Made by a program: the position numbers and the translations under genes. A stretch of DNA of 64,000 nucleotides from Marsupella aquatica (lineage: Eukaryota; Plantae; Marchantiophyta). Of this stretch, positions 11,729 to 34,300 are shown one piece after another. The notes under the pieces are model-generated. The model saw nothing but the letters and a program-made list of their open reading frames with translations, did not search any database and was not told the origin of the DNA. Numbering within the stretch: position 1 is the first letter of the stretch; each line of letters begins with the position of its first letter. The stretch is from NCBI GenBank assembly GCA_973895155.1, contig OZ316896.1:6004166-6068165 (forward strand), read 5' to 3'.

Positions 11729-12330
11729 CTAGCCTAATACCCATGCGGTGCACAAAATATTTTGAGGTGAGAGCAGGATGTTGAGGAGTGGCAAAGATGT
11801 TGAGGCCACGGAGATGCCAAGGAGAGGGCAAGGTTAATTTTGAGGCAAGGCAAAGATGTCCAGGTCAGGAAAAGATAGGGAGCTGAGAGAAAGATGTCGA
11901 GGCAAAGGGCAAGATGTCAAGGAGAGGCAAAGATAAGCAGGTGAGGTAAAGATGTTGAGGTGAAAAAGATGTCAATGAGAGAGAGATGTTGAGGTGAGGA
12001 AAAGAAATCAAGGTGAGAAAAGGAGGTTGAGGAGAGAAAAGAAGGCAAGGTGAAAAAACTATATATAAAGATGAGGAAAAGATGTCGAGGAGAGAAAATA
12101 TGTCAAGGATCTGACAAAAAGATATTGCAGCACTGAGATAAAGATGTCAAGGTGAGCAAAAGGTGAGATATTGAGTTGAGGAAAAGATGTCAAGGAGGAA
12201 AAAGATGTCGAGAGAAAAAATGTCAAAGGTGAGAAAAAAGTCGTGGTGAGATAAAGATGTCAGTGTGAGAAAAAAATGGCGAGATGAGAGAAGCATGTCA
12301 AGATAAGGTAAGGTAAAGTTGTTGTGATGG
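11729..12330 (-). mobile_element. Non-autonomous Helitron-like element with ~18-bp purine-rich minisatellite
   Basis: Minus strand ends GTGCACCGCATGGGTATTAGGCTAG|T (degenerate Helitron 3' hairpin + CTAG, CTAG at 11729-11732). It adjoins a degenerate array of (A)GAAAAGATGTCGAGG(T/A)G units. Confidence 0.65.
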
Positions 12331-13626
12331 TGTTTAAACCACAAATTGTGTGACCCCATTATTGAGAAGCGCAATTGGGCCTCTCTTGAACCATTAGATT
12401 TTCACTTATAATTGTGCCTATGCTATGTGGTCCAATCCGATCTATGGCTCAAAACATAGATCTCAATGAGATCTACGTCTCACAAAAAAATGAGACAAAA
12501 TATTCTTGAGAGCATCAAGGGCTAACCATTCCAAAATTTCAATTTTGATCAAACAAATGAGTTTTATTCATTTTTTGATTGGTTTGTTGAAGAGACTTGT
12601 CTAAGAGACGCAATGTCCGGCCATATTGAAGGTTAACAATGAACATAGGTCACATTTTATGGCTTTTTAGGTAAATATCTCGATGAGATGGCCAGATTGA
12701 AGAGTGTCATCATTTAATGAGCGTATCTCTTCAATGACAAATTTTTTGAGGCTCACAATAAATGGGGATTTGAGCTCCATCTGATCCCTTTGAACAAATT
12801 ATGTTTTTTTGGATGATTCTGGTGTGGGTAAAATTGTTGTGACTATGGGAAATTCTAGATTGTTGTTTAGACTTCTTGAGCACAATGACCACAACAATGA
12901 CGCGACATTAGTTTGTTACCCAACAATGTTTTTCATTGATTTGTTGATGATTGGTTGACAAGTGTGCTTTGTTTACATCTTGGTTCACATGTCTATACCT
13001 ATTGACCATGAGGATGACATGATAGGATAAATTAGCTATTTGCTGTGAAACCCTAGTTTTCCAAAACCTTATCCTAGGATAAAGCCTTTACAAAATGTAA
13101 GTACTAACAATGCTTTTATTTGATTGAATGTCAGATGTGACATGCATCTAAAGTGTAGACTAGGTATTGACAAGTTGATTATCCTAGTGTGTAGTACAAA
13201 ATCACACTTGTTAAAACAAGGTGCATTAGAGATGTCATTTCTAATAGATGTATTTTTTCTTTTCAATTCTACTTGATGTCCCCTTTTGGCCTTGTGTTTT
13301 TTCTTTATCCCCTTTTGTGGCCCTTTCTTGTCCTGTGCTACCCTATTGTCCCTTGAATGATAGCATCCTTGTCTTTCATGATCATTTGCCCTAATTTTCT
13401 TGATGTTCTTGTTGAAAGTTGTAGCACCATTGCAACTGGCAACAAAAGTATAAAAGAAGCCTGGGTTTCACACTCCCAGCATTTTGAAATTAGATTGTTT
13501 AAACCTAAACCCAAACCCTAAACAATAGACTAGCTACATGCCCTCATTCACCAATCAACACACTTTTGTTGCATAAGAAAGATAAAAACTAGCTTTCAAT
13601 GCGATAAAGGTGATTTATGTATTGTA

Positions 13627-13945
13627 ATAGCCCAATGCCTGTGCGTTGCATGAAAGATGTCGAGGAGAGAAAAGTTGTCAAGGTGATAAAAGATGTCAAG
13701 ATGATAAAAGATGTTGAGGCGATAGAAGATGTCGAGGAGAGAAAAGATGTCGAGGTGATAAAAGATATTGACGTGATAGAAGATGTTGAGGAGAGAAAAG
13801 ATGTCGAGGTGATGAAAGATGTCAAGGAGAGGAAAAATGTCAAGGTGAGAAAGATGTTGAGGTGAGGAAAAGATGTCGAGGTGACAGAAGAAGTTGAGGA
13901 GAGAAAAGGATGTCGAGGAGAGAAAAGATGTGAAGATGAGAAACA
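13627..13945 (-). repeat. Second minisatellite array (18-bp unit AAAGATGTCGAGG[TA]GA[GT]A) with Helitron-like 3' end
   Basis: atagcccaatgcctgtgcgttgca precedes ~16 well-conserved units; produces spurious KDVEERK / LSSTSFI ORFs. Confidence 0.8.
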
Positions 13946-14369
13946 TTGTGACAGTCATCCCTTTTTTCCCATCCATGTGCCCCCCTTCCCCTTTCTCCTT
14001 GCCTCTCCCCCTCTTTGTTTTGTTTCCAAGGTTTTCTTTGGGACAATAAAAGTCAAATTTGGTAAGACAATTGCGGTGAAAAATCATACAAATATTTGTC
14101 ATAGTTTATGGGTGTGAAAGTCTCATTATTTTGGCACAATATATATACAACTGTGAGTATGTATTTAAAGTATTTTGGGGAGACATAAATCCTAAATTAT
14201 CTATCATTCTTCTCTTTCCCCACTTTTTTAACATGTCTTGATTTAATAACTTGTTTTTTCCCTTTTATCTTCTCCCTCCCCCTTTTTTTCTAAACCCGGC
14301 CATTTTCTCATAAATTCTCCCATCATCTCTCATGTCTCCTCAATGTCATAGTTCTAATTATATGTGAAC

Positions 14370-14860
14370 ATAGCATGATGCATGCATGTAAGTTGCACAA
14401 AAAATTTTGAGGTGAGAAAAGATGGCGAGGTGAGGAAAAGAAGTTGAGGTGAGAAAAAATATCGAGGAGAGAAAAGATGGCAAGGTGAGAAATAAAGCAA
14501 AGATGAGGAAAAGATGTCAAGGAGAGAATAAATGTCAAGGGTTAGGAAAAGATGTCTTGGTGAGATAAGATTTCAAGGTAAGTAAAGACGGCAAGATATG
14601 AAAAAGATAAGGTGTGGAGGTGAGAAAAGATGTCAAGGTGAAAAAAAATATCAAGCCGAGTGAGAAAGATGTAATTGAGGAGAGAAAATATGTTGAGAAG
14701 AGAAAAGTCATCGAGGGTGGGAAGAAAATGTCATGGTGGCACGCAGATGTTCATGTGAAAAAAGATGTGAATGCAAGGTAAAGATGTTTAGGACTCGAGA
14801 TAAATATGAAAAGATGAGAAAAACATGTCGAGCAAGAAAATATGTCAAGGTGAGGCAAAA
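14370..14860 (-). repeat. Third, more degenerate array of the same minisatellite
   Basis: The leader gttgcacaaaaaattttgaggtgag matches 11748-11772, followed by gaaaagatgtcaaggtga-type units. Confidence 0.75.
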
Positions 14861-15091: not shown

Positions 15092-15900
15092 GTCGAAGGT
15101 AATATCCCCCCTCCTCATGGCCTCCACTGTTGAGTATTGCTCTTAGTCTTGTGACTCTAGGGCTAACCGTAGTTAGACTAACTCAGGTTAGGACCTAGCT
15201 AAGGTTAGTAGTGATGCATGTTGTATATAACCAGGGCTGATGCCAGCCCTTGGTCGATCTTCAATTCATTGTTGGAGTGGAGCAAGAGAGAAGTAAAGGT
15301 CTCTTGCTTTCCCGTGGACATAACCTAAGTCGAGAGGTGAACCATGTACTCGCTCTGTCAATTACTTTGTATGGTATTTATATGTGCATTATGTTTTGGG
15401 ATTAGGAATATACCCAACAAATGGTCGGTATCAGAGCAAATATATCTCACCTTGTTACCAGTCTGATTCTCAACTTGGGCTTTCCACTCCTTAAAAGTGA
15501 CAAAAACATTATAGTTATTGTGTAGAAAGTATATCCACACATACCTTGAGTAATCATCAATGAACGTGACATAGTAAACTCTTTCATAATGTGAGGGAGT
15601 AGGGGCTGGTCCCCACACATGTACATACTCAGGTACCTCCTTGCTGGTGTGAGTTCTAACTCCAAAGGGTTTCCTATGTTGTTTTCCAAGCACACAATGC
15701 TCACAAAAATCCAACTTACAAGATTGCAAATTAGAAAATAATCATTTATTTTGAAGAACAACCAAATCTTTTTCACTCATGTGACCCAATATGAAGTGCC
15801 ACAGTTGAGCCGTCTCCTCATGAGATAAGGCTACATTGGCTTCATCACAGACTACATTGTCCTCCAAAACGTATAGATTTTTGTGCCTCTTTCCCTTCAA
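15092..15900. mobile_element. Ty1/copia fragment: plus-strand LTR + PBS joined to a minus-strand GAG-pre-integrase/integrase fragment
   Basis: LTR-like CCCGTGGAC...GAACCA motif and ...CCAACA end at 15419, then TGGTCGGTATCAGAGC (tRNA-Met PBS-like). Minus-strand LWHF..GHMSEK, FCEHCVLGKQ, YYVTFIDDYSRYVWIYFL, FKEWKAQVENQTG. Confidence 0.8.
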
Positions 15901-16339
15901 CACAAGCTTAGTACCAATTGAAACCTGAAGGACACCATTTGCAGAACTCCATCGATGACCATTTGAAAAACTCCAGTGATGGTATCAAAGCAAAGGAAGC
16001 TATTTGGTTGGATAGACTTATCACAACTAGATTTTGTTGCATTAGATGCTAACAATACCTTCTTCATAATTGTCGTTAATATAATTAACAACTGCCATGA
16101 CTACGTTTATAACTACGTCCGACGTAACTAAGACGTCGGAGAAATATAAGCGTCGATTGCCCCCATTTTAACATCGCTGGAAACACGTTTAAAAGTAACG
16201 TCTTTGGATGAGCTGTCCTAAACATTGTTTTGGTCATCGTTCAATATTAACGTCGTAGTCGAGAACGTAATGTGTTTAGGGTATCACGACGTCAATGTTT
16301 ACGTCATGGAGGGAGCCATTAAAGTGGTAACGTTGCTCT

Positions 16340-17470
16340 GTAGGACATTCCAAATGAATCAAGCCATGTTAGACGTTGAGTACATTGGTGTGGATGACTT
16401 GAATGAGGAGTAGTCCATGCTGACTCGAGTATAGCTTGGGTTTTCTATGAGAGGATTTTGGTTTAAGAGTGCTGAGACCAAAGTAGGCTTGCGTTTGTGA
16501 TTTTTGGAGAATGCACTCTTCCTGAGTACAGAGAAATTGCAGCGTGGGATAGACGATAGACTCAGTGTTCAGTCATGGTGTGCAAGTTCTTCAAGGATGT
16601 GCATTGTTGCTTCCTTCCACTTGGTGAAGAGGACAAGACTATACGTGGGTTCTTTTGTCGGGGAGGTGTTATTGAGAAGTTGTGTACCTCGGAAATAGAC
16701 TACTTGCTGGCCTATACATGGAAGAAGTTGTTGAGCACTTCAGTGACTACCATGGATTGATCGAGCACTTTGCAAAGACAATTCATTTCATTTCTATCCA
16801 TTGGGTAGAGTGCTTAATTCTGGCCAACAAACAGTTGGATCTAGGAGACTTCCTGCATCCAGGTGATGATCAAATGTTGGATGAGGCGCCCAACCCAGAG
16901 GGGTATTTACAAACGACAGGAAATAGCAAACAGTAACAGAAAACAGAAACTGGTAACAGGAAAATGAGTGATAATTTCTTTTGAACTTTTTTTGAACTTT
17001 TTTTTTGGGGAAAAAAAAGTTTTTTTTCTTTCAAAATTTTATTTTATTTGCTAGCGCCCGACGCTGGTAATGCTAGCGCCCAAAGCTAGCCAAAAAATGT
17101 TGTAACTTAGATTTTTTTGGAAAATGAGACTTTTTAGAAAATATTTTGACATGGTTATTTTTCCTGGTAACAGTAACTTTCCTGGTACCAGTAAACCTGT
17201 TTCGTGTTTACTGTCACGCGTGCCATACCCAACCCAGATGATGGGGAGGCATATCAACCTACATTGCCCAAATGTGAGCTGTCTCCGTAGCTTCACATTG
17301 TCTTGTATGATTACAAGGAAAGTTGTGCAACTGAGGTTGAGGCTGAAAGGCTAAAGGCTGGGGAAGAGGTCGTCCGGAAGAAATGGAACTAGAGGCAGAG
17401 GCGTGATTCTTACAAAAGAAGGAAGGCAGATGAGGAGTACTACTGGTCTGGTGAAGGAACTCCTTAAGTA
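16340..17470 (+). pseudogene. Additional unknown ORF inside the CACTA element, split by a MITE
   Basis: Removing 16901-17239 joins ...QMLDEAPNP to DDGEAYQPTLPKCELS...EAERLKAGEEVVRKKW...EEYYWSGEGTP* in frame. Residual stops remain. Confidence 0.5.
16901..17230. mobile_element. Mutator-like MITE (330 bp)
   Basis: 9-bp TSD AACCCAGAG/AACCCAGAT (16892-16900, 17231-17239); GGGTAT...ATACCC termini with degenerate ~70-bp TIRs; AT-rich core. Confidence 0.85.
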
Positions 17471-18039
17471 GCAACAATCTAGATTTCAGTGGATGAGGCA
17501 GTTTAGTGATTCGGCTAGGTTATAGTCGCTTTGTGGTGGACATGCAATGTGCTTTGTAGGACCTTTGTATCTCTATATCATACTGAATCTGAATAAAGAT
17601 TCCCTCATGTTTTTCATTTTGAATGCATGTGCCAATTAATGTCACCACTGTCATTAACGTCGCGCAGATATAGTAACGTTGCAATACACGACGTCTTTGG
17701 TTTAATACGTACCCTAAAATGACGTAAGTTAGTGTAACATCATTTTATGTGGAGAATCAACGTCGTGTGGAATACCGTAAACAAGGTTGTGGGTAAATTA
17801 ACATCGTTGAAGGCTCAATAAAACGACGTTAATTGGAATTAATGTCTGCCTGGTACAACATAGTTTGAAGATACATTGGTCTACCGGATGTAATAGTCAT
17901 ACAACGACGTTACCCACAGATGCTACAAACCCACATGAAGGTGGCCATAACGAATATATACATGCACTGAATACATTTATGGTCATGGATCCATATCATC
18001 TACAATTACTGATGCCATCAAACCCTTCCTCTGTCATGG

Positions 18040-21000
18040 GAAGATGGGAATGACAATGGACCATCCTCTCATAGTGTGCATCGGAACCATAATACACTGA
18101 TCCACCTAGCTAGGAAATACTATAGTGTCACTAACCTCAGTGAGTGACACTATAGTATGAGAGGATGGTGCAGCTACACGAGTCGTGTCTACCCAATAGA
18201 ACCCACACTCATCTTTCACCATGGTGGCTCTATGTGGAGGTGACATGATGGATTTGTGCTACCGCACCTCTAACATAGTAGTAGTAAATGACCCAAAGTG
18301 AACGTCTAAAATATCCAATACAGTGCCACAATAGGGAATCTCAACATCACCTGGGTCTATCAACATGAACACTCCTGAGTTACATGTACTCTTCTTCATG
18401 TGATCTATCCTCCAAGTGCGAAAGTGGTGCCCTGACTCATACATGTGTGTATGGGTCGTTGCCCACAACCTTGGTTCCCTAATGATGTTCTGTACATCAA
18501 TGGGAATGGATAAGGGTCCATGCTCTGCAAGGAGCCTATCCATGCGCTCCAATGCCCATACGCAAAATAATGCATACCGTCGTGGAACTATCAGTTGCTG
18601 CTCCAAGAATGCACTGCAAAAAATGTATGAATCCATGAGAATATTGCACAATCCAAAGAAGTGCTCCTTGAACCCACTCTAACTTCTACACACATAGAAT
18701 GTAGAACACCGTCTACTGTTAGATTAACATATATATAGAGTTGCATATATGTACCTATGCAACTCCCTCCACTGAGACACCTTTGGGCAATTTCCCAACA
18801 CATAATTGTGGATCTGTAGGCAAAGTATGTTGTCATGTAGTGAATGCTTTTTTGATGCACCCATCAAATGCAACCCACCATTGTCATCATCTTGTGCCTC
18901 TTCCCAAGCTGTAGGAGCTTTTGTGTCCAAACTCCCTATCATCCCTCCGGAATAAAGAGGCACTCCGACATGATATACCCCGTTGCCATACTTCCCTCTA
19001 GTCGAGCTGGTTGACACACCATGGACTTGAGCACTTTCATAAAGCGCTCTACCCAATACATTTAACATGCATGGACAGGACCAGCAATCGCGACCTCATC
19101 CACCAAGTGACATAGTAAATGCAATTGCATGTCAAATATGCATGGGGGAAACACCTTCTCCATATTGCACATCACGCGAGCTAACCTCTCCCTCATCAAA
19201 ACAATATCAGACTCCTTTATCTCCTTAGCGCATACCCACCTATGTTCCTCCTCAAAACCATCAAAGATTTTGTCTGTCAAATCCACATAGGGCCATAGAA
19301 AAATGAGTTTGAAATACTTGTTGAATTACAGGGCTCCTCCAGCGGTAACAAGAACTTGCAAGAGAGCAATGGAAGAGAGGGTACATTATCATACCTGAAA
19401 ATGGAGCACATCTCATATATAGTCAGACGGAGTAAACAACGCTCCCGGGAATCATCACAACAACGCAAGACTGCTGGTAGCACACGTTGTATCAACTTGT
19501 GATAATCATGAGACTTCAACCCTATTGGGGGTATGTGATCATTCCTTCTAGTGCACCCACAAAAACCAGCTCCGTAATGGCTAGGGAACTTCATCTCGCT
19601 TATCATCCCATTCATGTCCTTCAAAACCTCTCTTGGCAAAATCCAAGGACCAGGAGGTTTCTCCCCAGTACGTGTTATCCAACAACTCTTCACTACTCCA
19701 ACCCTCTCAACATCCTCTCGGACTCCACGAGTGTCATTCGTCCCATAAATGTGCTTCACCAAGTTCTTAGCAACATTCACTTCAATGTGCATGGGGTCCA
19801 ACAACCATTGAACCTGGAGTCTCTCAAAATTGAAATACCATATTGAATCAGTTCACTTGCATTCTCTAAATTAAGCATGTTATTGGTCTAATTTGTTGTA
19901 AAGGAACCATGCACTTCTATCACTTACCCTCCAATAAGGCAAGTCCCACATAGCTGAGCGTCGGTTTACTCCACAATCCTTGGGTTTCAGTAACTTTGCT
20001 TCCACCTTCTCTGCCATTTGAATTTGTCCTTCAGCTGAAGGGCCATTAGGACATGGCCGCAATTCAGTCTATGCCCAATGTGTTGTGTTTTGTTGCAAGT
20101 GGTCATCCATTGCCAACCGGACCCTACTGCCCTCATATATGGTTTTGTGCAGTAGTCTTGAGCTCCTCCCATGCAACTCTGGGCCACATGAAGGGCAAGC
20201 TGAAAAACCTGTCACCTTTAGGCCAGATATTGTCCCCATACCTGCCATTTCATTGAACCATGTTCAGACCACAAATAACCCCAAGACTTGCATTGTACAT
20301 GACATTGTGCAAACAATAGCCATTGGGTTGCCCAATGAATTACCTGGACCATTTGTGGTGCAATGAGTGATCATCACCCTCATATTGAAGGTCTTGCCAT
20401 TGCTTGCTTCACGAGTGACATCTATTGTCACTGCTCCAACCTCCCACAGATTATGTAGCTCTTCATAAGCTGGAGCCAAACAGATATCAGGATTCTTACA
20501 GGCCTTGGGTCCAGGAATTATAGCTAATAGAAGCACATGACCCTTCTTCATTGCCAACCATGGAGGGATGTTCTGATTTATCAAAAGAACAGGCCAGATG
20601 GACTTAGGCTTCTGTTGTTGTTTATATGGGTTCACTCCATCGATTGCCAACCCCAAATAAACATTTCTTGGCTCCTGGGCAAAATTTGGCCAAGTGGCAT
20701 CAATGTGCTTCCACGCTGGACTATCTTGGTGGTATTGCATTATCCCTGGTGGGGATTTGTTCTCCACATGCCAAGTCTGTAGTGTGGATAAGTGCTTTCG
20801 TTGGTAGAGATGCTGAAGTTGGGGAGTGATTGGAAAATAACGAAAAACCTGCCAGATCCAATGTAACGTCGTCAATTTGACGACAATCATACTAAACGTC
20901 CTTCCACACTACGTATTATTGAAACTAACATCGTGGAGGATGACGTTTCTTACATACGATGTACCATGCAACGTTAGTTATTGCATCCCATATGACGTAA

Positions 21001-23690
21001 AAACAAAAAAACGTCAGGTAGAAAGACGTAAAGTGAGATGGACGACGTAAAGTAATCAATTACATAGTCATATACGATGTTGTTTGAAAGAATGCAACGT
21101 TAAAAGTCAGACCTTCTTGTTCTCGCATTGCGTTGAGGAAAACATTACCTTTTCTGCAATCTTGTCTCTAATGGTGTCTGGTCGATACCGTGGAAGCCTA
21201 CACTGCTCCTCTGGGCAGTGAGTGTGATCCTTGTACACCCCTCTATACAAGATGCACCCACCTGGGCACATGTGGATAGTCTCTAAAGCCAATCCAATTG
21301 AGGCTAACAACTTCTTAGCCTCCCTCACACATCCAAGGAGAGTGTTTGGTTGGGGCAAGAGTTTGTCGTGGAACAATTGGAAGAGTGCATCTGTATGGAC
21401 ATCCAAACCATTGAAAACTCCTTGCAAATTCAACATCAACAAAGTTGCACCCAACCTGGATTTGCAAAACCACAAACACCAGACTTTTTGCAGTTAGTCC
21501 AAGTAGCTAGATGGCATGCCTGGCACTACAACTTAGACTGCCCAATATTCACTGGATGAAATTCCAGAGTTGTGATCAGTTTAGGACAACCTTACCGTGA
21601 GGATGGAGATCCCTCAAATAGTGGTGTTCTGGCTTCAGCCTCCAAGTGATCCCAATCTTCTTGATCCACTTCCATGATAGGGTGCTCGGCGTCAGGTGCA
21701 TGAGGTCCAAAGTGAACGTCAATAAGGTGGGCAAAGGCATCTTCTTCAAGGATAGGGTCATCTCCCTCATCTCCCTCATCGTCAACATCATCATCCAACT
21801 CTCCATCATCATCCAACTCTCCATCATATGCATCATGGTACTCTTCATCCTCATCGTCCATCTCATCATGGTCAAGGGGCTGACCCTCAGCATCCTCCTC
21901 ATCTGAGAAATGTAAAGTGGCACGTACGTGAAAGGCACGGGCTGATGTAGTCATCATTGATGGGTGAGGTGTGGGAGTAATATGTACACCATCCTAGAGT
22001 TTTCAATATGCAATGATAGATCAAATTAGAGAAAGGGTTTTCGTGATAAAGCTTACAATGAAACATCAATAATGAAAAATGCAAGGGTCACCCCATAATG
22101 AATATGTCATGTACACATGTAAACATCAATGCCAATCATAATCTACGAGAATCTCTTCCCCTGCTCTAATGGTGCGGGTAGGATGTGTCAAGATGTAATG
22201 CGTGCATGCTACAGGCAAATGAGGGTGACTCTGGTCATGGAACTCGTGCCACTCAGCGATTGGGCTAAACCCTAAATGCCGAGAACCAATAGTGCTATTG
22301 ATGTAACCCGCTGAGTTCCCTGTGCGAGGTGGGTAACCATCAATCTGAGCATACCTAGGGTCCAACTTTAGTGACATGCCATATCAACTAAAGGTTGGGC
22401 ACTGTCAGGACAAGATGCGCCATCTCGCCGCCAAATACTTGGGCCCATAGAATGGAAACAACTGAGGCAAATCATTGGGTGCACAACCAGTAGGGACCAC
22501 AATATCCACAAGAGCAAATACTCCAAGTCCTACATGAGTCCCCAATGTGGAGGGGAGGATGACCCATGGGTGGTCCCAAACTATAATAGGCTCCCAAAGC
22601 GGGAGGTCCATAGGCGGGTCCATAGGAGTCCAAACTGGGCTGGGAAGGAGTCCTTTAAGATGTCCAAGGCTCTCCCTCGCAACTGTCTCAGTGCCCGGGA
22701 CACCAATGCATCAAGAAAAGGGCATCGGGGTGGAACAATCCTAGGTGGACAGGACTCAATCGATTGGGGTCTAGTGGTCACCACTACTCCCCTCTCAATA
22801 GGGTGCATCCTAAACACTCTCCCCCTCCTATGAAATACACGGTCTATCTCCCTCAATGTGGCTGGCAAATTGGATGGATGCATGGATGAGTGGTGCGAGT
22901 GCACGATATGCAATGACTCTCAAGCGGTCCACAGGCGAAGATCGCACTACAACAGGAATTTGTTCCACATGTTCACCAAAACAAGTTTAGAATATGACAA
23001 TCAAAGAATATGACAATCAAAAAATAATTCAAGGAAGGAGATGTTATCATAATTGCAATATCCAACAAAATTGTATTACCTCTCGAGTTGGGGGGGGTGT
23101 AACGACCATGGATCCCTAAATGGCTAAGGACAATGGTCCTCTCGTGTAAGACAACACCCTTGCATTGTCTGCAAGGGCAAGGCATCTTGTGAAATGGCCC
23201 AATCCCCTGAAGAGCAGCCATGGCCTCTCCAAATCCATCAGCACGATGGGAGCTTCGGCCTCTCTTGCCCTCGGAACGATGTCTGCGTCGATGACGATTG
23301 GATCGGTGATGCCTAGATCGATCATACGTTTGGTGAGTAATCTCTCTCCCGGTCTGACAGGTCATCCCTCCCCCTATGATGATGGTCATCTCTGCGTTGG
23401 GTGTAAGTACCCCAACCATAGTCCTCATAGGATGAGTCATCCCTCCTCCTCCCTCCCTCGTCATTCCTCCTCCTCCGCCGCTCGTCATCGCTCCTATAGC
23501 CCAATGAAGCTGAACTCCCCCTATGCCAATGATGGTGTCTATGTCGGTGAGAACTACCGCCATGCTCATCATCATCGTCATACGAGTCATCCCTTCGCCT
23601 ATCCGACTCATCATACATCCCCCTATGATGATGATGGTATCTGTGCCGACGATGTCTGCCCCCATCATGGTCCGATGCATAGGTTGCCAT
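18040..23690 (-). pseudogene. CACTA TnpD-type transposase (transposase-associated Zn domain, Transposase_21, DUF4218/DUF4216-like), multi-exon, disrupted
   Basis: MPCPCRQCK...LSHLGIHG; IHMCPGGCILY...CRLPRY; RYFPITPQLQ...DSPAWKHID...EPRNVYLGLAIDGVNPY...WPVLLINQNIPPW; LDPMHIEVNVAKNL; GLKSHDYHKL; MEKVFPPCIFDMQLHLLCHLVDEVAIAGPVH; YCGTVLDI. Multiple stops and frameshifts. Confidence 0.93.
22126..22946 (-). pseudogene. SET-domain (lysine methyltransferase-like) exon nested in the transposase intron
   Basis: LPSTLGTHVGLGVFA (SET-N), GNSAGYINS (RFINH-like) and TRTIRAGEEILVDY (ELxFDY-like SET-C) in one frame with two internal stops (22405-22126 region). Acceptor TTGTAG at 22947. Confidence 0.85.
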
Positions 23691-24108
23691 GTCCCCTGTG
23701 ATCAAATTTACAAAGGCCCCCACAACATATTAAACCCCAAGCATAAACTATCCCGCAATGTTAACCAAAATAGCGTCCAGCCACACAATGTTCTTCGCAA
23801 ATTAACGTCGTTGTTTAGGTTGCGGGGAACAAGCCAAATTTAATTTACGTAGCTATGTACTACGTACTTAATAAGTTAACGTCATTGGGTATGACATAAT
23901 TATGTGTAACGTCACCACTAAACCCTACACCCCTGGTTAACGTTGTGATTAGCAACGTTAAATTAGGGTAACGACGGGTCTCCAAGGTTTGTGGGTTGCT
24001 GCTGTTTTCCTTTAACAAAACATCGGGAAGTGACTCAAATGTGACTCACATTCAACATTAATTCAACACTTCCCCTCTCCCCCTCTCGACCTCCTATCTT
24101 AACAGTGA

Positions 24109-25960
24109 ATGACTATGGCTCATCCAAGCTATCTCCCTTCCAGTGGAGAATTTGATGTAGACTTGGTGGCTATGGATGATCCAGGGGAGGTAGAAAAGGT
24201 GCGTAAAGCTATGCAATCGACACATTCGTTGATACATGCTTTCAACTAGAGTTGGAAGTTCTTGGGAGGAAAAGGAAGCAAGGAGTCTCAGTTTCTGGAG
24301 TACCTGGAAAATATAGAGGCCAATGCTCCTGCCCTCGATGATTATGTGGAAACTGAGAATGCAACGCTCTTGGGGGAGGATTGTGGGCCTTCGATTGATG
24401 CTCTCATCTCCTTCCCGTCCCTACTAGATGATGGGTGGGATGATCTTGCCTTCAATGGAATGCAGCCTAATTCTCAGGCACCTAGTGGGACCCCAATCAA
24501 GAGCGTGGTCAGGGTAGCACATGACAGATTCCAGCCTGATCAGGATCGGGACTCTCGCAGGCGAAGGAGGCATCATGATAGAACACATAGCAGCAATAGC
24601 AGCCTTGATGAGAGAAGACGGAAGGGGAAAGGGAAGGAGTATAGAGATGCAGATCCACACAATAGAGGTACATACAAAAGAAGAAGAATAGAGGGAGATG
24701 CAAGGGCAGACAGAAGAGAGAGGTACTCACCTCAGCGTGAACGTCACTCCCACAAGAAGCGACAACCTTCTCATGTGCGACCTATAACTACTGTTGTGAG
24801 TCAAGACAAACTCCCAACCATCACCTTGGATGCGTTTGATGCTAGGCCGGATGTTCTGGATGAGAAGGCCCTCACAAATCGAGTGCAGATGTGTTGTGCC
24901 AAGCACTGTCCTGGTTGGACAACTTGGAAGGATCTCGCACAGAACCCAAAGAAGTTTCAGCTCCTCTTGAACGATGTGCAAGCTAGGTTTAGGAACGGCC
25001 GTGAAATAGACTACAGGCACATCAGACAGAAGATCGTAGGCTACCTTGCAGATTGGAGGTTTAGATGGAGAAACAAGGTTCAAAAAATGAGATGCCCAAG
25101 GACAGAGCAATACCTGAAACCAGAAGGAATGAGCGACGCCGACTTCAAGTTGATCGTGGCTGAGTTGGAAGCAGCACCTGACACCCCAGTAGGCAAGCGA
25201 GTGCACATGGGGGACAAAGCTGCTGCAGCCCACAAATCAAATGGCCACCTACGTGTGACCAATTTCTAGGGCCATGGAGGATGGCAAGGCTTCCTCGCAA
25301 CCTATGGAAGTCCCCAACCCTCTTCAAAGCACAGCTTGCTCATGCTTCGGTCGCTGCAGTGAGAACATTAACTTAATGTCGTTTTTACGTTCTAACGTCG
25401 CAAGTTCTCCATTTTACGTCTACCCACCCTACGTACACCCTACCTAAAGTCGGCTCTCACAATGTTACATTTAATTAACGTCGTTAGGTACATTATACTT
25501 AACGACGGTGGTGACGACGTTCTCCAATTTCCTGCATAAACGCAAGTCTGGAGCCAACGCCAAGCCAAGTGAGCAGGAGCGGCTCTATTCAAAACGCTAT
25601 GGCCTGACGGCCCTATGGGCTAAGCTGGACTCTGTCCCGAAGGACCACCCAATGGTAAGTTACATAGTCAGGTTAGGTTCCTTCTATACTAGGTTTTGCA
25701 TCCACTATTTGCAGGAGGTAAACTGATCCCTTATGTCATGTGCAGGAGGATTGGAGTCCTCCAAAGGGGTTAGTGGCACGGCCCATTGCGGAAGATGAGG
25801 AGGTAGATCATGGAGGGGAGGAGCCTGATACACATGAGGAGGCCTTAGTAGGCTGTGGGCAGGAGGGCAGTTTAGGTACACAAGGCCGGTCATCTTCTGA
25901 CCTCTCCCCTCCAGTGGAGACTGATAGGGGTCATACCAGCCATAGACGACGGAGAGAGAG
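24109..25960 (+). pseudogene. CACTA TnpA/ORF2-like accessory protein, divergent from TnpD
   Basis: 335-aa ORF with an R/H/S-rich linker and WTTWKDL...LLNDVQARF...IVGYLADWRFRWR, resembling plant TnpA-type proteins. Downstream exon remnants at 25540-25653 and 25746-25960. Confidence 0.55.
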
Positions 25961-28854
25961 ATTTACATTTCCATATACATAGATAACACCCTGCAATAGG
26001 TCTTATTGTTCACATGTTTGTTGTTCCATTGATTCGCAGGGCAACAACATGAGTATACAGATACATATGAACATAAGTTTACACCATATAGATAGTTTAG
26101 TTATCCAGCCTTTTATAAAGACATTGACATAGGATTTCACCTGTTATCAATATCAAAGCATAAATTTCCTCTGTGACAGTGAAAGATCGCCCTTGCTTAC
26201 AGTTTAGACTAGTTAGACTCCTTACGCTATTACCCAGGTGAAATTATTCACTGGGCCTGTACTGGGTGACAGTATTACTCTAATGCTGTGTCCACAACAT
26301 TGAGCATAGGCCATAATCTCTCTCCAGGAATAGACGGACGATATCTATTCACCCCTCCAGTGTCTTCGTTCAGCCCCCGCCACTGGAGTGAGATCATATT
26401 TCATTCATACGATTTCGTGTCCCATGTTTCTACAGCAATGTCTAGACGGTTGCGGGGAGACATGGGCCGGAAAGAGGCGAGCCACCATAGCATTCTATTT
26501 ATTCTAAATCATCATTTGTTCATACAGAGGCGACATTCAGACATTCAAGTAATTTTGCACATTCAAACATTTTAGATATGCAGCTACGTGTCCGTGATGT
26601 AGCACCTGAACCAGTTGGTCGCCCTGAGGGCTAAGGGTGAGCCGAAGTCGTAAGTCGCGACGATCGAGACACAAAGGGAAAATGCCAAATTGAAACAATG
26701 ATAACTTTCCAACGAGAGCTCCGTTGGAGGACTTCTTGGGTGCGTTGAAAAGCTCTAGAGGGCTACATTCTCTTGAGATCATCTGAGTCTAGGGGTGCCA
26801 TAGGTTGTGAGGGGTTGCGGGGCTATCTCGCTCGCTTGTCAAATTCTGTCAAAATAGCAGCCAAGCCGCGTTTAGTCTCTCAAGGGAGCTTGCGTTGGGG
26901 AGGCAAAGTCAAGTAGGCATGGAGGTTGAGTTCCAAGGGTACTTGGCCCCTAGACCCACCAGTGGGGCGAGAATCAAGAGTTTGTTGTTGGAGTCTGGGT
27001 CATTCTGGTCCCGACGTGTTGAGACAAGCTTAGTACAAGCCTCGGATAAGCTTTAGGACAAACTATGCTTATTGGGCCATGAACATGTCCTGAAAGCAGG
27101 GCGGTCAGTCGGTGATGGATAGGTACAAGGGGGAATCCGGGTTGCTCCCAAGGAAGGAGCTATTCTGGACAAACAGTGGATGTCGTTCTGGTTTTGGCTT
27201 ATGGCATCGAGAGGACCTATCACTGACCTACTTACCAATGTTTGTTGAGCTTGAGTTAGGATGCTAGACTTGGGAGATCTAGATCCTGAGGGGTTACTTA
27301 TTGAGACGCTTGGTTGCTTGTGCAAACAGTGAGGATTGTTGAGTAGCAGTCGTGTTGGAGAGCAAGTGTGGCTTTGTATGGGAGGGGCCACAATTGGTGT
27401 AAGGGACACCAGGTTGCTTACTTAAGGTATTCCGTGGAGGTGTTCTGGCACCGGGAGCAATTAGGCATGGGTGCTAGGATTGGTGAGGGCGTTGGGTGGC
27501 TAGGTCCATCACTATGTTCCCTCCAAAAGTGAGTTATTAAATTGACAATACACCATTTTTGGCAGGTTTCTTATTAGAATAGTAAGATTGACACCTCTTG
27601 CATTGGCCAAGGCACAATTTGTTGATGGAAGTTACCTCAATGGTATCTTTCTAAAACTATCCTTACTTAGTTATTTGTTATTCATACATGAATTCCAAAA
27701 TAATTGAGTAGAGACTACTTTGTTGGGATTTGGATATGCAGAGTTGCGCCCAAGATTGTGGGCGACATTGAAAGATTATTTAAATAAGCAATAATTTTAG
27801 TCAGGTTTTTGCAATCTTCTGTTGGTGTCCATGGCATGAAATTTACCTTGTCCACCACACCAAAACTACAAACAATTATCAAACAAATTTTGCTATGTGT
27901 TCGATACAATTATAAAAAATTGATTATTCATTTTAATACTATGTCTTCTAGCTAACTTTAATCTATAATTACATATTTACCACAATATAGTCCACAATGA
28001 GGGCCTTTTTCTTCAGAGCCGCTACTAAAATCTAATATTTATGAGAAAATGTGGAAAAACCAATAGCACAATATGATTGGTTAAATTCAAATTTTGGGGG
28101 AAGAGAAGATCTAAGTCGGGCGCCCTTATTATCTCCATGAATCTCATCCGTCTTTAATGGGCAATCTATGGCTCAAATAAAAGATCTCAATGAGATCTAC
28201 AGATGAATTTTTTTGTTGTTAAAATGATTGAATAGTTTTAAAATGAGAATAAAAACCAAATCCAAACCATCCTGACCATTGATTTGATCTTTGCTGAAAT
28301 CTATAATGTTCATTGCATTTTGCTAATAAAAATATTTTTTGTCCATATTAAAAGGTGATCTACAACGCAAATGAAAGATCTTGAGGAGATCTATGGTCTG
28401 GTCTTTTCTGTTTCAAAAATGAGTATATATCTTTAAAAATAAAAATAAATGATTTTTGTTGCTTCCTCCTCTTCCTCCTGCCCAATACTTGTTTCCATTA
28501 AACTTTCATGTTTCTTTATGGCTGTATAGTCCTAGAGATAACAAAATTGGAGATGAGAGATAACAATCACCGTATCTATTCAACCCGTGTTTATTAATTT
28601 ACCTAATTTTTTATTCATTTATCCAAATTTTTCTGGCCTCTTTACTCCCCCCCTCTCCCCTCATCGCCCTTTCTTTCCTTGCTTTCCCCTTTTGCCCTCC
28701 CAGTGCCTCGCCTTTCCTCCTCCCACTTTTTCTTCCCTTTAACACCATTAGAAAGATGAAAAAGAAGTTAAAAAATGGAAAAAAGACAATTAATCTCCAA
28801 AAAATTAAATCTCTTTTTTAAGAGCAAAAGCCAAAATAATTTAATGTCAATCTT

Positions 28855-31359: not shown

Positions 31360-34300
31360 TAAATAAATTATGATACCAAATACGGTAAACAATGTACTCT
31401 TCTTCCTCTTAGTGTTTGCTCATTATCAAAAATTATTATTTCAAGTCAATATATTTTCACTTTAATGCTCCATGCCAAAATGTATTCTAAATAGACTATA
31501 AAATAATATGCTTTCAATTTCAGGTTCCATGCAAGCTATAAAATAATTATAATAACACATTCAAATAATATTTTACATAGTGTATTTGTAGCCTATTAGA
31601 ACCAATCTTAGGTACTCATTTCACTCAAGCCAAAAACCTTAATAATTTTTAGAAAATCTGACAGTTGAGCATTGTTCCCTCTTTTTTCATTTTGGTAATA
31701 GAATGATGAAAAAAAATAGGTGAAATTGGTTATTATAATAGTAGATTTATTATATTTTTCTTGCATCTGTCCCCTCTACACTTTCCAATAATATATTAAA
31801 AATGGTATTACATTTTATGTGACATTAAGCCTACCAAACTAAGATGCATCAAAATATAGTAATGAATGAGTGATAAGAGATACGATTGCTCATCTTCACC
31901 AATTATTTATGTATACTAGCAAGTAGCACCAAAATCATTTCAAATGATTGAGTTCTAAAGACAAGTATGAACAACCAAAGCATAGATAAATCGATATATT
32001 GTCTCCAATCATCCCCCATAGACCATGACATATATAGTGAACACTTTACATATAATCATGATAAAAATCTACATAATAAATGTTCTCATGGACTCTTTAT
32101 CTACATGTGATTTCAGTTCAACCACAAGTAATCAAAAGACTATGTGCACCAAAACTAAAGTCTGGATGGATTGCTATGATGTTCTAGCTAACCCTATGAA
32201 TTGTGATAGAGAACAAACCCTATTTCACCCAATACTAATTTGAAAGAGCCCAACTGCAAATGGATTGAAAATTCTCTCACTAATTGTTTACCTATGTTTT
32301 TGTCACGGTAAAAATATTATCAGCACCCAAAAATCAAATTGAGAATGCAAATGGAATGGATTGAAGCAGAGAAAAATCATCCATAGCTCCGCAACAACAA
32401 AGTACTCAAAGTGCTCCCTATAAGAAGAACAATATTGTATGAAAAACATAATTTTTAGTAGCTCCAACCAAAAACATTACTTAAAACTCTCTTTGCAACA
32501 AGAGCAACACTCCCTAAAAAATAGGATTCATCAACAATACTCAAAAACTTGAAATCATAAGTAAGTTTGTAACAATAAACTTGGTCAAAATATTATTTAT
32601 AACAAGAGCAATGGTTTGTAAAAAATAGGGTTCTGCAGCAATCCTCATGCAAATTGAAATTTCTCCTAGTGCAAAGGAAAAATTAATACAATCTTGTTAA
32701 ACCATAGGTGCCCATATAAAAGGGTCACTTTCCCTGCCCGAACACTGTTCACTTCTGCCCCCGGAGAACAACAGAGTTGCCCCCAAAAAGTGGAGCTAAC
32801 CGGAAGTGACGGCCCTGACCGATAATGATGGCCTCTTGCCCCACAATTGCCTACGATAGCTCTCTCCATGAAAGTTGTCTGACATTTTCCTCGGTATTAT
32901 GCCTTCCATTGTATTCCACTTCAAATTTTTCTCGTCTACTGCTTGATTGTTTTCTTGTCTACTGCTTGACTGTAGTCTCTCAATAATCTGACATGCAATT
33001 TTGATTTTCATACCACAAAAATGACAGATTGTAGGCATTTTTGAGAAGGTGGGCGCAAACGCCAACCCAGTTTGAACACACGACCTCCCAAATCTAGGCA
33101 ACTATCGTAACCACTGTGATCTACTGGCTTTACAGATTGAATTGACAATCAACAGTATAAGATCAACTATTTAGAGATCACCCTAATGCACTTGTGACCC
33201 TGTTGCGCGAGCTACCCGTCTCACAGCCCATGCCCACACCAAAACTTGCCTCACCCATTCCCACTCCTCGGTGCCTACCTAATCTCTTCCCAAAAATAAA
33301 GTGCCCATACCTCTTCATTGGAGCCAGGGACTCGGTTATAGCTGTTCACGATCCGGTTGTATTATTATACCCAGTGGCAGGAGACCAACACCTGGATGTC
33401 ACCTTAGGTACTTCTTGATGGCTACCTAGGCTGCCCGGGACCCATGAGGACATGCCCTAAGTGCCCAACCCCCTGCCCATCTGCCCATCTCTCCCCGATC
33501 AGCAAGATAATAGAGATTCATATTATCAATATTCCCTAACAAAATCACTATTTTAAGTTTTTCTTTTTGGGGAAACATAGATCTCGGCGAGATCTATGTT
33601 TTGAGCCCAAAATTGGCTTATATCATGGACATATGAGATTCCAATGAGTGTAATAAGTTTGGATCGTGATCTCTTGATAGAGTGAAAAGAAAACTTTGTT
33701 GTGCACAATGAAATTACAAGTAACCCATAGCTTTTATATGTGCACTTGTGGTTTAACAAGAGCAATGTTCTATAAAAATTAACATTCTGCAACAACAATT
33801 TTGTAAGTTGTATAGTCATTTTGCAAGGTATCAATGCCCTATAATCTCAAGAAAATGTGTAGAAAACTTGTTATGTTCTTAGAATATTTCCTTTGTAAAA
33901 AAAGTATTTATATTTGGCTAAGATTACATGTGGTACTATAAAATATACACTAAATTAATCGCTAAGTGATTGAGATCAAGGAAATTTCTTTACTTATAAT
34001 ACTAACTACCTACTTACTCTATGAAAGATATATATTGAAAAATATTCTATAAATCTAAGTTTGAAATAACTTTTGACATAGGATGTTAAAGTCTGGATGG
34101 ACATGCACATTGTCCATGAAGCGTTAATGGATAAACCAAACAATGCATGGACATGATTAAAAATATAAACATTGGAGATTACTATTTACATTCTATCGAG
34201 TAACCAAATCATTAATTATTTCAAAAATTTTGTCTATCACTAACTCTATCACCAATTGTGTTATAAAGATAGTTTGTAAATGGCTGGAGCACTTTTAATT

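Follow-up and report, generated by a model that had tools for sequence, protein, structure and literature searches.

The window, a stretch of 64,000 nucleotides, contains a dead copy of a CACTA (En/Spm) transposon of land plants. The transposase matched the Pfam families PF02992 (Transposase_21) with an E value of 5e-38 and PF13960 (DUF4218) with an E value of 5.5e-14, and both domains were also present in the related locus L006. The coordinates of the transposase gene (TnpD) and of the adjoining features are given in Table 1. The window copy is dead, as breaks affect not only the SET exon but also its first exon and the 3' exons of TnpD; in the first coding exon the frame is broken near position 23325.

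Table 1. Features of the CACTA element in the window (positions in nucleotides)
Feature	Position	Strand	Remarks
TnpD gene	~23690 to ~17990	minus	CACTA (En/Spm) transposase
TnpD first coding exon	23080..23690	minus	R/H/D-rich low-complexity N-terminus, then CxCxxC...H zinc finger
Intron A, 133 nt	22947..23079	minus	GTAAT...TTGTAG; 71% A+T (SET exon 49%)
SET terminal exon, 821 nt, broken	22126..22946	minus	Delimited by alignment of relatives and N-terminal helix block
Spacer, 223 nt	21903..22125	minus	Ends in TCTCAG acceptor; 62% A+T, three TGTA
TnpD second coding exon, acidic	21596..21902	minus	Phase-1 entry
Remaining TnpD, several exons	17990..21455	minus	Transposase_21, DUF4218 and 3' part; in-frame stops
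Divergent ORF, 339 aa	24250..25269	plus	Free of internal stops; placed head-to-head to TnpD
Region between the divergent genes	23701..24100		AACGTC-type repeats
AACGTC/ACGTTA patches	16050-16450, 17601-17990, 20851-21146, 23701-24100, 25271-25530		

The SET exon and its surroundings in the window

The first-pass annotation had placed a SET-domain exon in a TnpD intron and regarded it as spliceable to the upstream zinc finger exon. All of the landmarks that it had named were recovered on the minus strand: CPCRQC at 23179-23162 and HLGIHG at 23122-23105 in the finger, the donor G/GTAAT starting at 23079 in phase 1, the acceptor TTGTAG ending at 22947, GLGVFA at 22530, AGYINS at about 22310, IRAGEEILVDY at 22170-22138, and the acceptor TCTCAG ending at 21903, which is in phase (1) with the acidic TnpD exon. 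The finger (23179-23105) is of the transposase-associated type, and its exon closes with the phase-1 donor. Its match to PF13963 (E = 0.0032, 18 bits) was below the cut-off of 27.7. The window finger was 49 to 55% identical to the finger of L011, a locus of a second family, and the CxCxxC...H pattern was common to three families and Riccia.

The SET exon comprises about 270 codons with a stop codon at 22128-22126, and consists of an N-terminal helix from 22923, an R-rich linker and the SET module at 22608-22129. A tblastn search found a single SET copy within the 64-kb window. The exon has two frameshifts and two stops. The frameshifts that the first-pass annotation had reported are real (at about 22885 and about 22625, both upstream of the SET core), but the phase, which it had held to be unconfirmable because of them, could be resolved. 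The SET core at 22608-22129 lies in a single frame with TGA stops at 22407 and 22386, and relatives aligned across all 821 nt of the exon in three frame segments. The frameshifts compensate each other (821 + 1 nt makes a multiple of 3), so that the acceptor at 22947 and the SET stop share one frame. A 14-residue block built from the N-termini of five relatives was used as a query for the N-terminal helix. It scored best (24.4) at 22923, in the phase-1 frame and 23 nt past the acceptor, while the next best score was 5.8; none of 1468 random 280-nt blocks of the window reached 24.4, the maximum being 16.8. The spacer downstream of the SET stop is predicted to form the 3' UTR of a SET isoform as well as the 3'-terminal part of the long intron of TnpD, and would contain a polyadenylation site.

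The divergent ORF on the plus strand gave no Pfam, Atlas or homolog match. In L003 and L006 a divergent ORF was present at the same place and was weakly similar to that of the window (E of about 1e-3). This ORF is probably the second gene of the element, which from its general pattern we take to be TnpA-like, and the region between the two genes is predicted to be a bidirectional promoter. Motifs of the AACGTC/ACGTTA type, which were picked post hoc, clustered in five short, apparently non-coding patches, with 28 of the 47 sites of the window in about 1750 nt. The CpG observed/expected ratio was 1.0-1.7 in these patches, compared with 0.2-0.65 elsewhere. Similar motifs occurred upstream of the finger in L011 and were absent from family B, the third family. 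Such motifs are candidates for binding by a protein of the element.

The ends of the window element were searched as well. Of 18 x 73 candidates, no CACTA...TAGTG pair of terminal inverted repeats convincingly enclosed the copy in the window, none of 12 candidate terminal pairs around it had a TSD (target site duplication) of 3 bp, and no locus showed both ends. Three family-B loci (L006, L012 and L019) share the left end CACTACAA with different flanks; a right end of family B was looked for and not found. The sequence CACTACAAC, which is the same as the family-B terminus core, occurred on the plus strand at window position 22945, at the SET acceptor, and at 21524 in the next intron, with no partner end found for either. 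That TTGTAGTG at the SET acceptor might terminate a nested element was considered and rejected, as no TSD-matched partner was seen by eye and the sequence was absent at the acceptors of the other families.

A remnant of a Copia-type LTR retrotransposon (15358-16050, minus strand), recognised by eye from GAG-pre-integrase/integrase-like sequence, adjoins the probable 3' subterminal region of the element. Degenerate purine-rich tandem repeat arrays with units of 18-19 nt were present at 11740-12300 and 13630-14830. A repeat of about 37-56 nt occurred in dispersed copies at 12434-12489, 28164-28394 and 33561-33619; two of these form an inverted pair 21 kb apart and are possibly the ends of another small element.

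Recurrence of the layout in other loci and proteins

Metagenome contigs were scanned with a DNA motif that matches only about 50 of the 192 collected proteins, and 21 loci were obtained. These were 19 loci of family B (one of them partial), the family-B sister L016, and L011, which was closer to the window than family B with 49% identity in SET. Twelve loci extended at least 850 nt upstream of the motif, and 11 of these had the finger there; twelve extended at least 700 nt downstream, and in 10 of these TnpD was detected there by tblastn. The exceptions, L014 and L002, had a truncated SET without the neighbour. In L011 the acidic TnpD exon downstream was recognised by eye, and the acidic exon of the window gave weak tblastn matches downstream of SET in eight family-B loci. 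The same layout, consisting of a finger exon, an intron of about 110-145 nt, a SET exon with a stop and a transposase exon, thus recurred in two other families. The SET segment is not a one-off, being present at the same position in other copies and families, and judged from these sequences it is cargo of the family rather than a single capture.

The counterparts of intron A measured 144 nt in L011, 111 nt in L016 and about 116-118 nt in family B. The phases of the donor, the SET acceptor and the TnpD acceptor were 1/1/1 in the window, 0/0/0 in L011, and 0/0/0 in family B and L016. The window copy, from a distant subfamily, thereby differs from the others in splice phase. In family B the AG of the SET acceptor was intact in 9 of the 11 loci where it was located, and that of the TnpD acceptor in 11 of 12. 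The phases thus match in all three families, which agrees with the earlier proposal of a CACTA family with its own SET exon, spliceable in frame to the finger exon. As the SET acceptors were chosen once the frames were known, the three-family match, expected about once in 27 by chance, supports splicing but does not prove it.

Scans with peptide patterns gave no confirmed locus in viral contigs (18 stretches) or in metagenomes (57 stretches), and the DNA motif scan found no locus in prokaryote genomes or viral contigs. Since these scans used exact patterns, a distant bacterial or viral origin of the SET stays compatible with them.

The dN/dS test named in the first-pass annotation revealed purifying selection on SET. 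The comparison of L016 with 10 family-B copies gave dN/dS values of 0.27-0.34 at a dS of about 0.42, so that between subfamilies purifying selection acts on SET (dN/dS about 0.3). Inside family B the median dN/dS was 0.85 for SET (77 pairs) compared with 0.56 for a TnpD exon (15 pairs). A value of 0.85 is expected for decaying copies, and weaker constraint fits it too. Comparisons of the window with other copies gave 0.30-0.54, but they were saturated (dS > 1.3) and are not used here as evidence. When L016 was compared with L012, conservation was 0.82 in the SET core and 0.84 in the finger exon, compared with 0.72 in the intron, 0.60 in the linker part of the SET exon and 0.55 in the spacer.

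With a finger profile, eight proteins were found that carry the finger and SET-family sequence in one chain; three of these eight had been used to build the profile. Four are gene models of the liverwort Riccia sorocarpa (P0059, P0075, P0087 and P0115), and the others are P0062, P0084, P0128 and P0175, of which P0062 is an ORF from a Logan contig that may represent RNA or DNA. Among 41 longer relatives scanned, SET-family sequence was joined to Transposase_21 in three Riccia models. In an AF2 model of P0062 the finger was folded (pLDDT 82-85), the linker was disordered, and the SET module had values of mostly 88-98. The model suggests the layout of a tethered enzyme.

SET family membership and fold

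Of the expected PF00856 match, the part concerning the window copy held poorly (E = 0.0099-0.015, 16-17 bits, below 22.4), while the relatives did match. Of 20 close relatives, 19 matched PF00856 at E <= 0.1 and 8 were above the cut-off. As the window copy alone is weak, the identification of its exon as SET is based on the matches of these relatives. Nineteen of them, at 35-67% identity, were found among 38 candidates, and one more among 170 longer ones. A phmmer search of the PDB with the window SET gave no match, and the profile search there gave only weak SET matches with E values of 0.07-1.8. A profile collected 176 representatives of the family at E <= 1e-3 (150 of the 176 listed). The nearest cluster in the Atlas was a streptophyte SET cluster. 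The 20 matches that were looked up included seven Riccia sorocarpa gene models, one sequence from Calypogeia, one from Ginkgo, two from Adiantum and one from a bacterium. Distant members of the SET family (P0162, P0179, P0188, P0189 and P0131) were Adiantum and Ginkgo gene models and related proteins; in the gene model P0189 the SET-family sequence is fused to an SH3 domain of a Tf2-type retrotransposon. These members may be carried by other elements or may have been domesticated.

The SET fold was borne out by AF2. The intact relative P0009, which is 53% identical to the window core, was modelled with a pLDDT of 79.7. This model gave 271 PDB matches at E <= 0.001 with a best E value of 2.9e-7, and SET proteins alone were among the matches listed; viral SETs were matched as well, at low identity. 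The best fold matches were bacterial, viral and histone SETs, all at 15-23% identity. Because they span these three groups at similarly low identity, no substrate class is indicated.

A tree of 69 SET cores was calculated with FastTree and rooted on one bacterial SET; host SETs and 98 of 163 partial sequences were left out. It grouped the window SET with P0003, P0004 and P0012, near L011. Its deep nodes were weak and uninformative on origin.

Possible roles and comparison with known systems

That the element possesses a conserved SET exon in the first coding TnpD intron, as an alternative to TnpD, is highly probable from the gene structures. On balance, we also favour the reading that one finger exon is spliced either to the SET exon, giving a predicted methyltransferase with a chromatin-permissive role, or past it to TnpD. 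Use of the proximal acceptor (22947) and termination in the 223-nt spacer would yield a finger-SET protein whose N-terminus is of low complexity, followed by a small folded finger and, behind a disordered linker, a compact SET module, while use of the distal acceptor (21903) would skip the SET exon and yield TnpD. With the SET exon spliced to the finger exon, the element would itself encode an enzyme predicted to methylate proteins. The shared finger would bring SET wherever TnpD goes, that is, to element DNA or the transposition complex, and there SET would most likely methylate histone lysine and keep the chromatin of the element permissive. This histone-directed, anti-silencing role is proposed tentatively. 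The complete reading, that an old and diverse CACTA lineage of land plants (liverworts, likely mosses, with SET relatives of greater distance among fern and Ginkgo gene models) carries a histone methyltransferase as an alternative last exon and marks itself through a splice-switched finger, is possible, although we hold it with a little more reserve.

The catalytic motifs were compared in 65 of 163 members, namely those that span the domain, the window included. The Gly of motif I (GxG) was kept in 64 of the 65 members, the terminal Tyr of motif IV (GEE...Y), also present in the window, in 64, and the Asn of motif III in 62. The canonical SET motif III reads RFINHS, with a histidine. This NH-motif (SAM-motif) His was found in none of the 65 members, 63 having Ser and 2 Asn, which is a PR-like departure. 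The YxG position, mapped by motif analogy, was Tyr in 37 members and Phe in 28; Phe is the residue of the window copy and its subfamily. The median tail past the terminal Tyr was five residues, and the earlier description as a compact SET was borne out: the chains of the family stop soon after this Tyr, and there is no Cys-rich pre- or post-SET.

The finger-SET protein is somewhat more likely than not to be an active methyltransferase. The family-wide change of His to Ser, the frequent Phe at YxG and the missing post-SET would also suit a different role under the same splicing. The finger-SET protein could methylate targets other than histones, namely TnpD, the protein made from the divergent ORF or a silencing factor of the host. 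Alternatively, a catalytically weak or dead SET could bind lysine or SAM, rival TnpD via the finger and tune transposition rather than oppose silencing. The similarly low identity of the fold matches to bacterial, viral and histone SETs, indicating no substrate class, favours this as well. Against it, the terminal Tyr, the motif-I Gly and the Asn were kept in 62-64 of 65 members although these are highly diverged. PR/SET domains are not known to carry the NH-motif His, and PRDM9 is active nevertheless. We regard the different role as rather unlikely. The available part of PMC5519329 lists three tyrosines of PRDM9 as catalytic and remarks that activity can survive when single catalytic residues are lost.

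The SET exon could also be an independent nested gene with its own ATG and an internal promoter or non-coding leader, in which case the finger would be excluded. The SET exon opens with an ATG in L011 and has one as its fourth codon in family B, and an ATG is found at or near the exon start in several relatives too, so that a SET-only protein would be possible. In several relatives the called start is indeed a Met located at the N-terminal helix, but gene callers take the first Met, and in the window the helix starts with Leu. Moreover, the phase of the acceptor tracks that of the donor in three families, just 111-144 nt of A+T-rich intron lie upstream, and eight proteins contain the finger and SET-family sequence in one chain. 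An independent gene is therefore improbable. A host gene fragment captured once, or a nested insertion, in this copy alone and without a function for the element, would suit the broken window copy, its Pfam score below the cut-off and an acceptor that reads TTGTAGTG, resembling a CACTA right end, but it is ruled out by the conserved layout, which recurs with unchanged position and order in Riccia models and two further families, by the purifying selection between subfamilies and by the conservation of the SET core above that of intron and spacer, and we give it next to no credence.

The reading of a finger exon shared between SET and TnpD was compared with known transposons. Spm elements produce TnpA and TnpD via alternative splicing, as stated in the available part of PMC4158355, and the available text on Arabidopsis Spm3 (bioRxiv 10.64898/2026.08.24.746577) reports that a single gene gives rise to TnpD and to a TnpA-like factor, and that TnpA induces CG hypomethylation. 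The term 'SET domain' does not occur in that text of the Spm3 preprint. Like maize En/Spm and Spm3, in which TnpA acts against silencing, the present element has a CACTA transposase, and two products by splicing are predicted. Unlike in these systems, the second product has a SET enzyme fold and is not the DNA-binding TnpA, it is encoded by a terminal exon within the first coding intron that shares the finger, and the gene that is probably TnpA-like stands apart and is divergent.

Transposons with SET as cargo have already been published, also from the EnSpm superfamily. In the available part of bioRxiv 10.1101/2025.02.11.637652, Plavaka elements (EnSpm superfamily) of the red alga Bostrychia are described with three accessory genes, one of which, PAG2, carries SET fused to an N6-adenine DNA methylase; capture of SET by Helitrons is also mentioned there. 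HarbingerS and MuDR elements of Phytophthora carry SET genes according to the available part of PMC12730594. In the accessible descriptions of SET-carrying transposons, SET is an accessory gene. The present element resembles Plavaka with PAG2 as an EnSpm-superfamily element with a SET domain, but going by that description it is set apart by a plant-type Tnp2 transposase (PF02992) and by a SET nested in an intron. It likewise differs from Plavaka and Harbinger in that its transposase is of the PF02992 type and its SET is not an accessory gene. In contrast to PAG2, no DNA methylase match was found in the scanned window ORFs or in 61 relatives. HarbingerS, oomycete MuDR and Helitrons are SET-carrying DNA transposons too, as far as their available descriptions go, but their superfamilies and hosts differ. 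For land plants, the search turned up no description of a CACTA transposase with a nested SET exon, Repbase Reports and most subscription journals being outside the scope of the search.

The likeness to VANDAL/VANC (Arabidopsis MuDR), from the descriptions at hand, lies in the proposed self-targeted anti-silencing. VANC is a separate gene that is not known to contain a SET domain. The AACGTC/ACGTTA-type clusters in non-coding parts of the window presumably resemble the layouts of VANC targets. With SET8, vSET, LegAS4/RomA and PRDM9 the SET exon product shares the fold, GxG, the Asn, the terminal Tyr and the lack of Cys-rich pre- and post-SET. It differs from them in its identity of only 15-23%, its own N-terminal extension and insert, the replacement of His by Ser, and a chain that stops a few residues past the terminal Tyr.

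In the available sources, the means by which plant transposons withstand silencing have been elucidated for VANC and TnpA, described there as sequence-specific regulators that cause hypomethylation; functions of the SET cargo in oomycete and red-algal elements are only proposed. A SET exon in the transposase gene of a bryophyte CACTA element would permit a direct test of self-written histone marks, as bryophyte hosts are transformable and intact relatives exist (L005, L012, P0004, P0009 and P0062). A class of bryophyte proteins annotated as 'SET domain-containing protein' is flagged by it as transposon cargo and not host genes. If the proposed reading is true, the choice of splice site would toggle one finger between DNA cutting and chromatin marking of the element itself, and the transposon would bring along a chromatin writer of its own, belonging to a separate class of SET with Ser in place of His and no post-SET.
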